Below, piece by piece: positions 166 to 52,190 of a stretch of DNA of 64,000 bases. The stretch is from a bacterium. GTDB taxonomy: Bacteria; Cyanobacteriota; Vampirovibrionia; Gastranaerophilales; JBAXKC01. The notes beneath the pieces are model-generated. The model worked only from the letters and a program-made list of their open reading frames with translations. It searched no databases and was not told the DNA's origin. A program made the translations under genes and the position numbers. The stretch is taken from the NCBI GenBank assembly GCA_037137535.1, contig JBAXKC010000001.1:128001-192000 (forward strand), read 5' to 3'. Each line of letters begins with the position of its first letter. Position 1 is the first letter of the stretch.

Positions 166-869
166 TATTTTTCCACCTTTGCAACCTGCTGAGCCATACT
201 TTCAAAAATATAATTATAATTTTTAATCTCTGAATATCCTAATTCTTTTAATATTTTTACCATTTTATGCTGTGAAGGATAATCTGCGGCAGAATCAGAG
301 AGATAATTATAAGGAGAATACTGTTTGTTTTTTATAAAAAATCCCGCTATTAAAGGCATTATACGACTAAAATAACAGTTAAAAAAAGGCATTAATATGA
401 CATTAGGTTTTCCAACATCTAATATCGACAAAATACCATTATTTTTTAAAACCCTTTTAATCTCGATTAATCCTTTTTCAATACTTTCAAGGTTTCTAAG
501 TCCGAAACTTATAAATACAGCATCAAAACTGTTATCTTCAAACGGCAAATTTAGTGCATCCGCTTGAATAAACTCTATATTATTATTTTTAATTCTTTTT
601 TTTGCAATATTCAACATATTTTCAGAATAATCAACAGCTTTAATTCCTGAAAAAGGATATTTCTTGGCCAAAATCATAGAAATATCACCTGTTCCCGCAC
701 ACAAATCAAGAATATCAGCATTTTCTGAAAGTTTAACCTGTTCTACCGCTTTTATTTTAATAAATTTATGTTGTCCAAAACTAATAACATAATTTAAAAA
801 ATCATATTGCGAAGCAATAGAATTAAACATTTCCTTAACAAATACAGATTTAGGTTTATTCAAAAACAA
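165..869 (-). CDS. ubiE: Ubiquinone/menaquinone biosynthesis C-methyltransferase (UbiE/MenG family)
   Basis: VKEMFNSIASQYDFLN, ILDLCAGTGD SAM-binding motif, DALNLPFEDNSFD, ISFGLRN. Confidence 0.9.
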   Translation of the reverse strand: MFLNKPKSVFVKEMFNSIASQYDFLNYVISFGQHKFIKIKAVEQVKLSENADILDLCAGTGDISMILAKKYPFSGIKAVDYSENMLNIAKKRIKNNNIEFIQADALNLPFEDNSFDAVFISFGLRNLESIEKGLIEIKRVLKNNGILSILDVGKPNVILMPFFNCYFSRIMPLIAGFFIKNKQYSPYNYLSDSAADYPSQHKMVKILKELGYSEIKNYNYIFESMAQQVAKVEK

Positions 870-930
870 GACGGTTTTCTCACATTTCTGATATTATAAA
901 ATTAAGCATATAATAAAATTGTAATACAAA

Positions 931-1280
931 AGCAAGTAGCATAGATGATCGCGGATGCATTTGCATCTGAGGAAAGTCCGGGCACCATAGGGCAGACCGC
1001 CGGATAACTCCCGGTACAGGCGACTGTGAGGATAGTGCCACAGAAATGATAACCGCCGATGACGCTAAATTTTAGCGAACAGGTAAGGGTGCAACGGTGG
1101 TGTAAGAGACCACCGGGGATGTTGAGAAACATCTGCCAGGTAAACCCCGGTCGGTGCAAGGTTAAATTGAGAATAAAAGACGGCCCGTTATTTCTCAGGT
1201 AAACCGCTAGAAGTGTTTGGAAACAACCACTCCAGATAGATGATCATTGATACAGAACCCGGCTTATTGGCTACTTGCTT
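931..1280 (+). ncRNA. rnpB: RNase P RNA (bacterial type A); ends approximate
   Basis: GAGGAAAGTCCGGGC near 5' end, AGTGCCACAGAAA, GGGTGCAACGGTGGTGTAAGAG, GGTAAACCCC, ACAGAACCCGGCTTA near 3' end; complementary termini; GC-rich island. Confidence 0.98.
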
Positions 1281-1310
1281 TTGTATTAAGACAATTACGG
1301 AAATAATTGT

Positions 1311-1673
1311 ATGTTTAAAATGTCACAAAGTGAATTTTTTGAAGTCGGATCAATTTTTGCAGTCTTTTCCTTAGCTTTTTATACACTTATTCCATATATT
1401 TTAAATTTAAATTTAATTTTTATACCTTTTCATTTTTATAAACTTGTAAGCGGCCTATTTTTAATTGCTACAATGTTTTTTTATATTAACAGCCTAAGTT
1501 TTGCCGCAAAACAAATTAAATTTTTTGGAATTATCTTCTTTTTGTTTGGATTATTTCAAATCTGTTTTGCTACAGCTATATCGGGGCTAAGTTTAGTTGA
1601 AAAAATAATACCTCTATTAATCGGTCTTTTTCTTTTTTTTATCAACAAAATATTCAAAATTTGTACAAATTAA
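1311..1673 (+). CDS. Hypothetical small membrane protein
   Basis: 120 aa ORF with about four hydrophobic segments. Confidence 0.55.
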   Translation: MFKMSQSEFFEVGSIFAVFSLAFYTLIPYILNLNLIFIPFHFYKLVSGLFLIATMFFYINSLSFAAKQIKFFGIIFFLFGLFQICFATAISGLSLVEKIIPLLIGLFLFFINKIFKICTN

Positions 1674-49098: not shown

Positions 49099-50688
49099 TT
49101 ATAAGAAAGCTTGAAGTTTTTTCTTTGGCTCGGCTTGTGAAGTAGTGGAATTACAATCTGCATAAGCCTTTAAGCCTGGAGATACACTTGTACCTGTTCT
49201 GTGTTCCCTGAAAATATATTGCAATTTAGGTAATAAATAACCTAGGGAAATACTACATAATGCCATATTTAAAATCGTCATTCCGCCTTTTAATACTTTT
49301 GTCTTAGTAATAAGTGAATCGAGTGCTTTTTCTTCATTAATAGCCTTTCCAGCCTTATTTATAAAGTTACCGACATGATCATATAGATTTTTTAATTCAC
49401 TAACTTCAATAAACTTAGACGGATTTAAAATATGTTTTCCATCTTGCTCTATTACTTCAATAATTCCCATTTTCTGAGCGGTTTTTAGTAATTCATCAGT
49501 AAATTCACCTGTTTTATTATTTAAATTGCCTGTAATAAATTTAATAACTTTTTCTTCATTAAATTTATTGTCTTTATTCGCATTTGCAAATATTTCCACA
49601 GGCTTAAAGTTTTTAAATAAAGCCTTATTATTATCAAGAGCTTTAAAGTCAAGATTAATAGGTAGGTTTATTTTATCTGCAATCGTTGCTAATCCGTCTT
49701 TAATTATTTTTGAAGCAAAGAAGAAAAAGAAAATAATTCCGCCTTCTCTTAAAGCTATTTCAGCTCTTTCATCATTATTTCTTGCATTTAAAACTCTACT
49801 TCCTGAAATTGCAAAATCAACAGCAATCATATTTCCGACAGGATCAATCTGAGCAGAAGCTGCCTGATTTGCTAACTTGTCTATGATTCCGCCAAAAGCA
49901 ACCTGTTTTTTAGAATGTTTTTCCAGTATTGCCGTAAAGGTAGTATTTTTTGCAGGAACTGAAAGTGCCATGCCTTGCTGTAAAGATTGACCTGCAAGAT
50001 TTGGATAATTTGATTTTGTAGAGGGCTCTTTACTTCTTTTTTCTTCAATAAGTTTTTTAGTTAATCCTTGATTAAACTTAGGAAGAGCATAAGCAAGAAA
50101 AGCAAAAGGAACTAAAGTTGAAACAACTAACTTTGCAATATTATAACTCTTATACTTTGATTTATTAAGAACACCAAGTCCTGCTTTAAGAATTTCTTCT
50201 TCTGAAGCATTTTTATTTTTAAGAATGGTTTTTCCTAATTCTATAAATTTATTTTTATTGTCGCCTAAGCCCGCCACAAGTTTTCCATAAGCGTTTTCAT
50301 CTTTAAGATAAGCACTTATTAAATCCTGGTTGATTCCGTGTGAAAAGCATTGAACGCCTTCACTATTTATTTTTTTAAGTGATATATGCGGATTTATATC
50401 CTTGAAAGCCGGTATTAATGATGAAACTTTATCAAAAGCCCATCTACAAGCAGGGATACCGCCAAGCCAGACTACTGAAGTCCCGACTTCTTCTATAAAT
50501 CTTTCTCTTGCCTCATGAACTCCACTTTCTTTGGAGTGTTTGCTTCCCTCATTGTATGCCATAGTAGTTCTGCCGCATACATCAACCATATCTTTGGCTC
50601 CAACCAGCCATAGAGAAGAAGGATTGTCCAGATTGGACATAATAGGCGTAATGACTCTGCCTACTGTTGGAAGTGTTAAATTAATCAT
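49099..50688 (-). CDS. Hypothetical membrane protein with two-fold internal repeat
   Basis: 529 aa; GGAGG RBS; hydrophobic segments in two similar halves. Confidence 0.8.
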   Translation of the reverse strand: MINLTLPTVGRVITPIMSNLDNPSSLWLVGAKDMVDVCGRTTMAYNEGSKHSKESGVHEARERFIEEVGTSVVWLGGIPACRWAFDKVSSLIPAFKDINPHISLKKINSEGVQCFSHGINQDLISAYLKDENAYGKLVAGLGDNKNKFIELGKTILKNKNASEEEILKAGLGVLNKSKYKSYNIAKLVVSTLVPFAFLAYALPKFNQGLTKKLIEEKRSKEPSTKSNYPNLAGQSLQQGMALSVPAKNTTFTAILEKHSKKQVAFGGIIDKLANQAASAQIDPVGNMIAVDFAISGSRVLNARNNDERAEIALREGGIIFFFFFASKIIKDGLATIADKINLPINLDFKALDNNKALFKNFKPVEIFANANKDNKFNEEKVIKFITGNLNNKTGEFTDELLKTAQKMGIIEVIEQDGKHILNPSKFIEVSELKNLYDHVGNFINKAGKAINEEKALDSLITKTKVLKGGMTILNMALCSISLGYLLPKLQYIFREHRTGTSVSPGLKAYADCNSTTSQAEPKKKLQAFL

Positions 50689-50709
50689 TGATTAGTTCTC
50701 CCTCCAACC

Positions 50710-50796
50710 CTATAATCCCCATAGGAGTGACATCCAATCGACTCTTTTGAGCCAATTGGTACTCCTATTAATTCTAAATAAACTTTCGGTATGCAT
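50710..50796 (-). CDS. Trp-rich micro-ORF A, MHTESLFRINRSTNWLKRVDWMSLLWGL (candidate leader peptide)
   Basis: GGAG RBS 6 nt before ATG; paralogous to 51130..51213. Confidence 0.75.
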   Translation of the reverse strand: MHTESLFRINRSTNWLKRVDWMSLLWGL

Positions 50797-50891
50797 CGTG
50801 ATCTCCATATATATTAAAAAACATTTTCTTCTTGATTTTTGCTTAATTATTGTTCAAATGTTAATAAATAGAACAAAAATTTAACTTTGAT

Positions 50892-51119
50892 TCATGTAAC
50901 ATCAATAAAAACATGAATACATCGCTTTTTTATCCTAAAAAAATCAATAAAATCAGCAATAATGCACGAAATTATATTTATTTGACTCATATAATGATTA
51001 ATTTTTAATAAATCTTGCTGTTTATCTTTCAAAGAGGTTAAGTTATCTCTCTTTTTTTCAGATAAAAGAGGTTTATTAAATATTAAACTGTCATAGTGTC
51101 TTAACAAATTCATCACCAT
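50892..51119 (-). CDS. Hypothetical 75-aa protein
   Basis: AGGAG RBS immediately after the micro-ORF B stop; start may be the nearby in-frame ATG at 51113. Confidence 0.6.
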   Translation of the reverse strand: MVMNLLRHYDSLIFNKPLLSEKKRDNLTSLKDKQQDLLKINHYMSQINIISCIIADFIDFFRIKKRCIHVFIDVT

Positions 51120-51129
51120 TACTCCTAAA

Positions 51130-51213
51130 TCATAATCCCCAAAGCATATTCATCCAGCTGACTCGTCTGAGCCAGTTTGATGAATTTAATATAATGCTTC
51201 GTAAATTGTACAT
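51130..51213 (-). CDS. Trp-rich micro-ORF B, MYNLRSIILNSSNWLRRVSWMNMLWGL (candidate leader peptide)
   Basis: AGGA upstream of ATG; paralogous to 50710..50796. Confidence 0.72.
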   Translation of the reverse strand: MYNLRSIILNSSNWLRRVSWMNMLWGL

Positions 51214-51374
51214 AGGTTTTTATTTCCTGAATTTCTTTTATATGTTCATGTAAAACCATTACAAACAAATTATTGATTGGAAAGATTACACTTATTTACA
51301 AAAGTTAAAATTTAATATTACATTTTAAAAATTATACATGAAAAAATAGAAGTTTCAATAATCTTAATAAAGGC

Positions 51375-52190
51375 TTAATCTATACTGAAAGCAAAATCTT
51401 TACCAAGAACCTTTTCTCTGAGGCTTAGAAGGTCTTTACCATACGCCTTTGTCAGCTCGTCGCCCAGCGTCTGCTCTACATCAAGTAAAAACATATCATG
51501 AATAATAACTTCTTTCATAACAAGGACTATTCCTGGGTTTTTTGTCCATACAGCCTGTGGAGCACCTTTTATGCTTGAAATAACACCTGTTATTCCTTCT
51601 TTATCATCGACAGTTATAACAACCCAACGACCGCCTAAAGAATTTTCAATAGTTCGACCTAATCCATGCTGATAAACCAAGCCAAAATCAAGAGTTACAT
51701 CGTTATATCCGACAACTTTAATATCAACGCCACGGTCATAAGCTTCTTTTAACGGTTTTTCAAGATAAGGCAAATCTTCATGCCATAACTCCAGAAAAAT
51801 TTCACTTTGAGCATGTTCTATCATCTCAATTGCTTTTTTATAAATATTTTTTTCGCCATTCAAATTTAAAATAGGCTGAACAACATTTTCAGATAAATTA
51901 GACAAGTTATCTCTTAAAAAACTAACTGAAGAATTAAAAGCTCTTTCACATCTTGTTAAAAGCTCGTCATGAGGGATAGGAACATAAGTTGCAGGCTTCG
52001 CACCTGTTGCAACAACGACTTGTCGAGTCTCAAGACTTTTTAAAGTATCATAAGCTCTTGCCTGCGGAACTCCAGATTCTTTACTTACTTCATAACCTGT
52101 TGCAGGATTATGTTTTAACAATGCAACATAAACTTTAGCTTCATAAGAATTAAAGCCTAATTCTTTTAAATGTGATAAAATATCATCCAT
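51375..52190 (-). CDS. TrmB-family transcriptional regulator
   Basis: LGFNSYEAKVYVALL..GYEVSKESGVPQARAYDTL. Confidence 0.92.
   Translation of the reverse strand: MDDILSHLKELGFNSYEAKVYVALLKHNPATGYEVSKESGVPQARAYDTLKSLETRQVVVATGAKPATYVPIPHDELLTRCERAFNSSVSFLRDNLSNLSENVVQPILNLNGEKNIYKKAIEMIEHAQSEIFLELWHEDLPYLEKPLKEAYDRGVDIKVVGYNDVTLDFGLVYQHGLGRTIENSLGGRWVVITVDDKEGITGVISSIKGAPQAVWTKNPGIVLVMKEVIIHDMFLLDVEQTLGDELTKAYGKDLLSLREKVLGKDFAFSID

Follow-up and report, generated by a model that had tools for sequence, protein, structure and literature searches.

Two very short open reading frames (ORFs) lie in tandem on the minus strand of the window analysed here, a stretch of 64,000 nucleotides (nt) from contig JBAXKC010000001.1 of a bacterium of the order Gastranaerophilales, and both end in nearly the same tryptophan-containing sequence directly before another ORF. 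What these micro-ORFs, called A and B in the following, might do for their host is the question raised by this locus. The first-pass annotation had regarded them as candidate leader peptides of an arrest or attenuation system that controls two genes and possibly senses tryptophan. Both micro-ORFs are present as it described them, with different stop codons (TGA in A, TAG in B), three Trp residues at identical distances from the stop, and 10 (A) or 21 nt (B) between the stop and the next start. On the basis of their sequences they belong to a family of leaders, here called WGL leaders after their last three residues, for which we found no earlier description. A role as leader or arrest peptide is still the best reading: with slightly more than an even chance, the WGL leader is a regulatory nascent peptide linked to translation termination and the conserved translated leader of one branch of a membrane-protein family specific to Melainabacteria.

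The WGL leaders and the selection on their peptides

Micro-ORFs A and B (Table 1) share the C-terminus NWL[RK]RV.WM..LWGL. The end of A, WMNMLWGL, is canonical for the family; B alone among 58 leaders has Ser in place of Asn at position -6. Ribosome-binding sites had been assigned to both, and that of B is indeed good (GGAG, 6 nt before the ATG), but A possesses only AGGAA about 11 nt upstream, a weaker and more distant signal than had been implied. B lies directly 5' of the gene for a protein of 529 amino acids (aa) and A before an ORF of 75 aa. Within the 2.95-Mb genome there are only these two copies (two matches to the DNA pattern against none in the control, and two matches to the peptide profile).

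In total, 58 leaders were collected, plus four more and five of a variant class described below. Their consensus is a basic N-terminus followed by RR...AN.P.V..MN..WGL-stop, and they are 23-33 codons long (median 27). Homologues with a broken frame or without a start codon, which the first-pass annotation had named as the mark of an RNA-only motif, did not occur: 58/58 leaders keep the ATG, the open frame and the position of the stop, and the last 16 codons contain no insertion or deletion in the entire set. The stop itself is TAG in 28, TAA in 23 and TGA in seven cases. In a codon table of 26 leaders, taken from outside the main family of the order and from one genus within it, W-G-L-stop is present in 26/26 and Asn at position -6 in 25/26, and the codons vary freely. 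Gly is encoded by GGA (7), GGC (7), GGT (8) or GGG (4), Leu by TTA (9), TTG (11), CTA (2) or CTT (4) and hence from both codon boxes, both Asn codons are used, and the stops are TAA (15), TAG (10) and TGA (1). The 32 main-family leaders end in eight residues, LMNLIWGL, that vary hardly or not at all; W-G-L-stop is found in 32/32, and the proportion of synonymous differences over the last 20 codons is pS = 0.63, compared to pN = 0.13 for the nonsynonymous ones. Since W-G-L-stop is invariant while synonymous codons change freely, the sequence comparison argues decisively that the micro-ORFs are coding and that selection acts on a peptide fixed to its stop. The stop-anchored C-terminal conservation that had been proposed from the two window copies therefore extends to the whole family.

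The proposed sensing of Trp did not find such support, as only the last Trp is conserved. One Trp is present in 46 of the 58 peptides and two in ten, three occur in window copies A and B only, and tandem Trp codons are absent from all 58. Basic and polar residues make up the N-terminal half of the peptides, and a hydrophobic run of about 8-12 residues lies at the C-terminus. A Pfam search with 23 leader peptides gave nothing significant (best E 0.058 with DUF2474, below the curated cut-off), an NCBIfam search with four peptides gave no match, and a search of the Atlas with a 32-aa form of the peptide returned no usable match. Neither the motif LMNLIWGL, MNLIWGL or NMLWGL nor such a leader from Melainabacteria was found described in the literature, where supplementary small-protein tables may list these peptides.

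A pattern search across the window genome and its relatives, as suggested at first, found the motif beyond chance. A strict DNA pattern matched five sites in 4/401 genomes of the order, all immediately preceding homologues of the 529-aa gene, and the reversed control gave zero matches; a pattern for the whole C-terminal motif matched the window genome only among 41 relatives. Such strict patterns are too narrow, and the true range is revealed by a peptide profile (alignment A4, 25 positions from 23 peptides). In a class-wide sample of 151 genomes, this profile detected one copy each in 30/32 main-family genomes, two in the window genome, and none in the 118 genomes of the sample that belong to other orders. 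It also matched 5/5 further main-family genomes and 13/33 genomes from the other families of the order (f2 1/1, f8 5/5, f9 5/5, f6 1/3, f5 1/12), with no match in f4 (0/3, which has the variant form), f7 (0/1) and f10 (0/3). The leader almost always lies 5' of a member of one family of 420-530-aa proteins to which the 529-aa protein belongs, and in 32/32 main-family loci examined the order is leader, then family member. All leaders examined stand at the 5' end of their unit, after the terminator of the previous gene and with their own Shine-Dalgarno sequence, and between their stop and the start that follows there are -1 to 80 nt (median 37, 58 leaders).

RNA pairing and rare arginine codons

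The first-pass annotation had also described hairpins centred on UGGCUC-N4-GAGUC. In the window they are real. The hairpin inside ORF A has a predicted energy of -31.3 kcal/mol (z = -4.96; 0/200 dinucleotide shuffles are as stable), and its 3' arm, which codes for RVSWMNML, finishes 9 nt short of the stop codon; that inside ORF B reaches -29.0 kcal/mol (z = -2.64; 2/200 shuffles). The arms of the two differ in sequence and the pairing is nevertheless preserved, as had been noted. The same hairpin is missing in relatives, which pair other segments, and is consequently not a feature of the family.

What the relatives have in common is a base-paired 3' half of the ORF. There, the 5' third of the ORF pairs with the Trp-Gly codons and about 8-17 nt past the stop, the main-family pairings being GCCCCA (Ala-Pro) with UGGGGY and ACUCAAUAAU with AUUAUUGAGU. 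A leader's own 5' and 3' arms pair better (mean -17.1 kcal/mol) than arms mixed between leaders (-13.5 kcal/mol; 0/2000 permutations as low). When this structure is imposed on the 32 main-family leaders, 77% of the cells are paired, compared to 28-48% with the partner slid, the covariation score is 0.213 against 0.132 after shuffling (0/500 reach it), and 7/16 pairs have changes on both sides. Because the arm-pairing and covariation tests ignore relatedness and the structure was read off the same sequences that were tested, these results give moderate support for a conserved RNA helix that would join the 5' part of the ORF to the stop region.

In many main-family spacers, though not in others, a further hairpin with clear covariation immediately precedes the downstream Shine-Dalgarno sequence; a U-tract is absent from these spacer hairpins. 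Between the window ORFs and the next starts there is no terminator-like site either, so the classical attenuation considered at first is not borne out. Rfam searches gave only chance-level small nucleolar RNA and microRNA rows in the window at E <= 10, none of them over the ORFs, and nothing at gathering scores in four related loci.

A further layer of constraint concerns the codon CGA, which makes up 92/112 Arg codons in the N-terminal part of the leaders and only 1/40 in the C-terminal 16 codons. For comparison, long ORFs at these loci write 3.1% of their 2907 Arg codons as CGA, and the window genome 5.9%. The conserved RR pair is written CGA-CGA in 39/47 leaders having it, and this codon pair adjoins the 5' side of the outer helix's 5' arm. 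Among the 37 tRNAs found by ARAGORN in the window genome, tRNA-Arg is represented by the anticodons ACG, CCG and TCT, with no UCG. Under the wobble rules, CGA is then decoded only via an inosine-A wobble, and the reading of CGA in this genome thus depends on that pairing. In the window itself, copy A has two single CGA codons and copy B none. The window is atypical in several respects: its leader is duplicated, copy A has only an orphan ORF behind it, no part of the hairpin extends beyond the ORF, and CGA-CGA is absent.

Downstream genes and variant leaders

The 529-aa protein encoded behind copy B is predicted to consist of helices throughout, two of them long and hydrophobic. It matched neither a Pfam nor an NCBIfam family, its 39 database homologues are all unnamed, and the nearest Atlas clusters are called 'hypothetical protein, Candidatus Melainabacteria'. 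A Foldseek comparison of its model with the PDB found nothing at E <= 0.001, and a wide VIA-align comparison gave generic long-helix matches only (best Z 6.2). Its family of helical proteins is known from Melainabacteria only and is multi-copy, with at least one match in 183/201 sampled genomes of the order and often 3-7. Longer, distant relatives occur in other orders (11/50 sampled genomes), and the profile search found no WGL leader in genomes of those orders.

The assumption that copy A, too, controls a gene found no support, since the 75-aa ORF behind it is an orphan without homologue. Its sole match in 5.8 billion proteins is a 100%-identical entry of 59 aa that has no source, like those of the window's own proteins. 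It is probably not a conserved gene, judging from these searches. We also considered it as a degraded member of the 529-aa family and rejected this, as BLASTP finds no similarity to that protein and none of three frames matches the family profile. An extra A follows window position 50936, inside this ORF, in one DNA contig from a sister sample (depth 2); this fits an unconstrained ORF or may be an assembly error.

A leader before an unrelated gene was found once more, in the 91%-complete genome G029, where the family profile detects no member of the 529-aa family. There the leader precedes a 404-aa protein that is unrelated to this family (hhalign probability 0.2%), has no Pfam match and belongs to a family specific to f5. 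All 12/12 f5 genomes searched hold this 404-aa family, the leader stands before the G029 copy only, and it is absent at all 13 other loci with homologues of the 404-aa protein. In two genomes of one f9 genus (G031 and G027, loci L126 and L127), two complete modules of leader plus family gene were observed in each, which indicates that the module duplicates as a unit. Window copy A may be the remnant of a second module of this kind.

With regard to expression, promoter-like sites are not enriched around the leaders (11 found, 15.5 expected by chance), and the one listed in Table 1 is a possible start of the leader transcript. One of five sequencing runs containing the stretch is from RNA, and its low-depth contigs span 6/30 bins, the gaps carrying no information. 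The evidence for expression of the leaders is minimal and consists of a single contig of this library (50481-50712), which reaches the stop of ORF B, might stem from DNA carry-over, and is silent on starts, strand, level and ribosome position. The leader transcript is immediately preceded by a gene for a TrmB-family transcriptional regulator (Pfam PF01978, E = 2e-21; 51375-52190, minus strand), an arrangement that the relatives inspected do not share.

Two other kinds of micro-ORF occupy the position of the WGL leader in related loci. The variant class ends in I-L-N-I-F-stop instead of M-N-x-x-W-G-L-stop, keeps its amino acids under synonymous change, is anchored to the stop as well, and stands 29-32 nt ahead of the genes of one monophyletic clade within the protein family. 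The other kind was observed before a main-family paralogue with the N-terminus M.IT.IISAIGN.SSVYPL..RDCG and contains a run of His codons, for example MENMILKLHHHHHCNPGRAVN and MLQNQSLKLHHIHHHSN. Its spacer measures 89-144 nt in the ten copies measured (134-144 in nine) and, in the four copies read (L016, L018, L024, L025), holds a GC-rich hairpin ending in a U-run; at His-run loci a spacer segment pairs with the GAAUUGGAGAA Shine-Dalgarno sequence. The arrangement resembles a classical histidine attenuator, on a gene to which no function is assigned, and no Rfam family matched at gathering scores. All of the 30 best homologue loci possess a conserved upstream micro-ORF, namely 15 WGL, three ILNIF-stop and 12 His-run leaders. 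In metagenomes, a query with the single 529-aa protein found nothing, and an alignment query yielded 38 loci. The 11 closest of them (34-48% identity) all have a leader (nine WGL, two ILNIF), and in the other 27, which are distant or partial, a regular-expression search detected no WGL, NIF or His micro-ORF. In a quick, midpoint-rooted protein tree, the His-led proteins form one clade (17 rows, support 100) and the ILNIF-led proteins another (4 rows, support 98), both nested among WGL-led clades. The simplest reading of this nesting is that the leader module was replaced at the same position in sister clades.

Table 1. Features of the window (positions in the window) and of related loci (positions in the locus named)
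Feature	Position	Strand	Details
Leader micro-ORF A	51130..51213	-	27 codons + TGA; MYNLRSIILNSSNWLRRVSWMNMLWGL; profile match E = 4.5e-7
Leader micro-ORF B	50710..50796	-	28 codons + TAG; MHTESLFRINRSTNWLKRVDWMSLLWGL; profile match E = 1.2e-7
Hairpin inside ORF A	51141..51201	-	AAGCAU/AUGCUU, AUUCAUC/GAUGAAU, CUGGCUC/GAGUCAG
Hairpin inside ORF B	50721..50768	-	AUAGGAGU/ACUCCUAU, CCAAUUGGCUC/GAGUCGAUUGG; centroid structure
Possible weak hairpin	50669..50705	-	minimum-free-energy prediction; GGAGG of the 529-aa gene with CUUCC in codons 6-7; start codon in inner loop; probability of Shine-Dalgarno plus AUG being unpaired 0.39
Gene for 529-aa protein	49099..50688	-	AlphaFold2 (AF2) model, predicted local distance difference test (pLDDT) 82
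75-aa orphan ORF	50892..51119	-	starts 10 nt after ORF A
Promoter-like site TTGAAA-16-TATAAT	51331..51358	-	11/12 consensus match only; about 118 nt 5' of ORF A
WGL leader in G029	L125 1501-1575	-	MKKESASILTNQNFINWMNLVWGL; 8 nt before 404-aa ORF 277-1491 (-)
ILNIF-stop leader	L010 2994-3065	-	
ILNIF-stop leader	L014 1043-1114	+	
ILNIF-stop leader	L023 2982-3053	-	
ILNIF-stop leaders	L045 and L048 1307-1378	+	
His-run micro-ORF	L016 1292-1357	-	His-run micro-ORFs lie about 100-230 nt 5' of family gene starts
His-run micro-ORF	L025 1292-1363	+	
His-run micro-ORFs	L144-L148		

Proposed termination-linked regulation and its alternatives

Stop-anchored coding selection, RNA pairing, rare-codon bias, linkage to one gene family, phyletic range and the swapping of leaders are seen directly in these loci, and the mechanism that we favour builds on them. 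The nascent peptide, which with its 23-33 residues would still be inside the exit tunnel when the ribosome arrives at the stop, might act on its own ribosome at termination by means of the invariant N-x-x-W-G-L directly before the stop. We infer that release would be delayed or arrested, either constitutively or under the modulation of a small molecule, should such a ligand exist. The ribosome held at the stop would keep open the conserved mRNA hairpin, whose 3' arm includes the Trp-Gly codons and, among relatives, extends over the first ~8-17 nt past the stop; in most relatives, the tandem of rare CGA codons 5' of the hairpin's 5' arm could slow the ribosome and time the event. The downstream gene might respond through re-initiation or coupling, or because the stalled ribosome shields the mRNA, and would not do so through Rho antitermination or a simple unmasking of the Shine-Dalgarno sequence.

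A number of observations weigh against this mechanism. In the 100%-complete window genome, no gene passes the Rho family cut-off (best 65.9 against 509 bits), so the output used by TnaC and SpeFL is unavailable. Furthermore, the Shine-Dalgarno sequence and start of the downstream gene are not predicted to be masked, as they are in leaders of the ermCL or SecM type. According to thermodynamic prediction only, on 53 testable leaders, the mean probability of being unpaired is 0.65 in the free RNA and 0.66 with a ribosome footprint at the stop, and the footprint raises start accessibility in eight leaders, lowers it in five and leaves it unchanged in 40. For copy B the predicted value rises from 0.41 to 0.53. 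The base after the stop is U in 47/58 leaders and a second in-frame stop follows in 8/58, and both features favour efficient release. The window copies have neither the CGA-CGA pair nor the post-stop arm of the hairpin, and the variant class is wholly without W-G-L. Conservation in the main family covers the peptide as a whole and not its end alone, which is expected of a functional small protein. Finally, main-family genomes with a His-led paralogue retain the WGL mini-gene elsewhere, so the peptide could act in trans on both proteins.

The last two points lead to the possibility of a free-standing small protein of 23-33 aa that begins with basic residues, finishes with a short hydrophobic stretch and the end WGL-COOH, and acts in trans, for instance at the membrane or on the neighbouring helical membrane protein; the first-pass annotation had likewise offered small membrane-interacting peptides as an alternative. 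The mini-gene would then be the first, translationally coupled gene of a two-gene operon, and hairpin and rare codons would tune its yield. We consider this unlikely on balance, although it deserves to be taken seriously, since it accounts for the strong purifying selection across the whole peptide in the main family, for the leader's own Shine-Dalgarno sequence, for the efficient-looking stop context with its tandem stops, and for the free accessibility of the downstream Shine-Dalgarno sequence in the predictions. The hypothesis also agrees with the single copy found in a genome, in nearly all cases next to a member of one protein family, and the persistence of the peptide in G029, where that family was not found, fits an independent function. 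AcrZ, KdpF and CydX are small membrane proteins of this trans-acting kind. However, the hydrophobic run of the WGL peptides is too short for a membrane helix, no Pfam or NCBIfam family was recognised among them (see above), and their end is fixed to the residue throughout the order, with the variant class being stop-anchored as well, which is unusual for protein C-termini. Nor would one expect of a protein acting in trans a strong selection for the rarest Arg codon, a covarying mRNA helix that spans the stop, or a sister clade with a His-run leader and a terminator-like hairpin at the very same place.

The His-run leaders of the paralogues rather recall a sensor at the level of codons, in which a pause at hungry Trp (UGG) or tandem Arg (CGA) codons refolds the RNA and the peptide is irrelevant. 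The CGA-CGA pair immediately 5' of the hairpin's 5' arm in 39/47 leaders with RR and the three Trp codons among the 27-28 of the window copies would agree with such attenuation or coupling. We nevertheless judge it improbable, because conservation extends to the peptide itself (with N, W, G and L staying fixed under free synonymous change), the single conserved Trp codon is never in tandem, the ORF is not followed by a terminator hairpin with a U-tract, the CGA pair is missing from the window copies and no shift in start-site accessibility is predicted. Even further from the data is an RNA-only motif, be it a riboswitch or a small RNA, with an incidental reading frame. Although the window hairpins are stable and covariation is seen in relatives, third positions are free and amino acids fixed, start, frame and stop are kept in 58/58 leaders, the UGGCUC hairpin is not conserved in relatives, and Rfam matches neither the ORFs nor the related loci at the thresholds given above. 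Sequence comparison thus already contradicts this reading, and we give it hardly any chance.

A regulatory nascent peptide acting at termination can be compared with several described leaders, since WGL leaders combine a short ORF at the transcript start, 5' of a gene, with residues fixed relative to the stop, as is typical of arrest peptides. In units with the classical attenuation leaders hisL and trpL, too, a leader ORF comes first, and the sister paralogues of the WGL-led genes carry a His-run with a terminator-like hairpin. Unlike hisL and trpL, however, WGL leaders have no run of a single codon class except CGA-CGA, no terminator, and a conserved peptide. TnaC, for its part, needs an essential Trp residue. 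It resembles the WGL leaders in its 24-odd codons and in conserved residues at a fixed distance from the stop, where the action of the release factor is blocked (PMC8450073). TnaC uses UGA and release factor 2 (RF2), senses free L-Trp, and has Rho antitermination upstream of Trp-catabolic genes as its output (PMC8450073). WGL leaders, in contrast, use all stops, have no Trp-related gene behind them and occur in a genome where Rho was not detected, and Pfam found no leader family in the 23 peptides searched. The constitutive option is illustrated by PepNL, a mini-ORF peptide that blocks its own termination without an inducer, but, like TnaC, is tied to UGA and RF2 and is relieved by read-through with Trp-tRNA (PMC11890864); WGL stops are mostly TAG or TAA (51/58).

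The closest functional analogue of the WGL leader is SpeFL, which senses ornithine ahead of speF in gamma-proteobacteria (bioRxiv 10.1101/604074). The two share a short conserved leader ORF (about 30 codons in SpeFL), the use of any of the three stops across species, with SpeFL arresting at its stop, a conserved Arg-Arg pair with rare codons that slow the ribosome in SpeFL, a hairpin that contains the 3' end of the leader, and a basic N-terminal followed by a conserved C-terminal part (bioRxiv 10.1101/604074). There are also clear differences. No sequence similarity between SpeFL and the WGL leaders was seen, and the spacer of the latter is only -1 to 80 nt long (10-21 nt in the window). SpeFL acts through Rho-dependent termination and has a known ligand context, whereas no Rho gene was detected in the window genome and the gene downstream of the WGL leader has no assigned function, so that no ligand is suggested. 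Likewise, SpeFL arrests at its stop, whereas for WGL leaders such arrest is proposed.

More tentatively, and with a readiness to be wrong that exceeds our confidence, we suggest that WGL leaders might represent a new class of termination arrest in a setting where Rho was not detected. N-x-x-W-G-L would block release at any stop, possibly gated by a metabolite via the RR/AN.P part in the tunnel. The inosine-wobble CGA pair and the ORF-spanning hairpin would set the timing, the output would be re-initiation or mRNA protection, and the module would be interchangeable with the His-run attenuator and the ILNIF-stop variant. If this is true, one gene family would carry a natural set of interchangeable ribosome-based sensors. 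To our knowledge, regulatory nascent peptides comprise a handful of well-studied cases, nearly all from cultivated Proteobacteria and Firmicutes; the WGL leader is almost universal in the uncultured order to which the window genome belongs and which includes common Melainabacteria of the human gut. The present candidate is defined by its comparative signal, with four independent layers of constraint, namely the peptide, its anchoring to the stop, the RNA helix and the rare codons. With its 24-28 codons, the leader is also a short and easily synthesised object with which to ask how a W-G-L C-terminus could hinder release. Should the peptide act in trans instead, it would be a new conserved small protein that annotation has overlooked in hundreds of genomes. 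As a leader, it would provide a first regulatory handle on a large membrane-protein family of the Melainabacteria that is without an assigned function.

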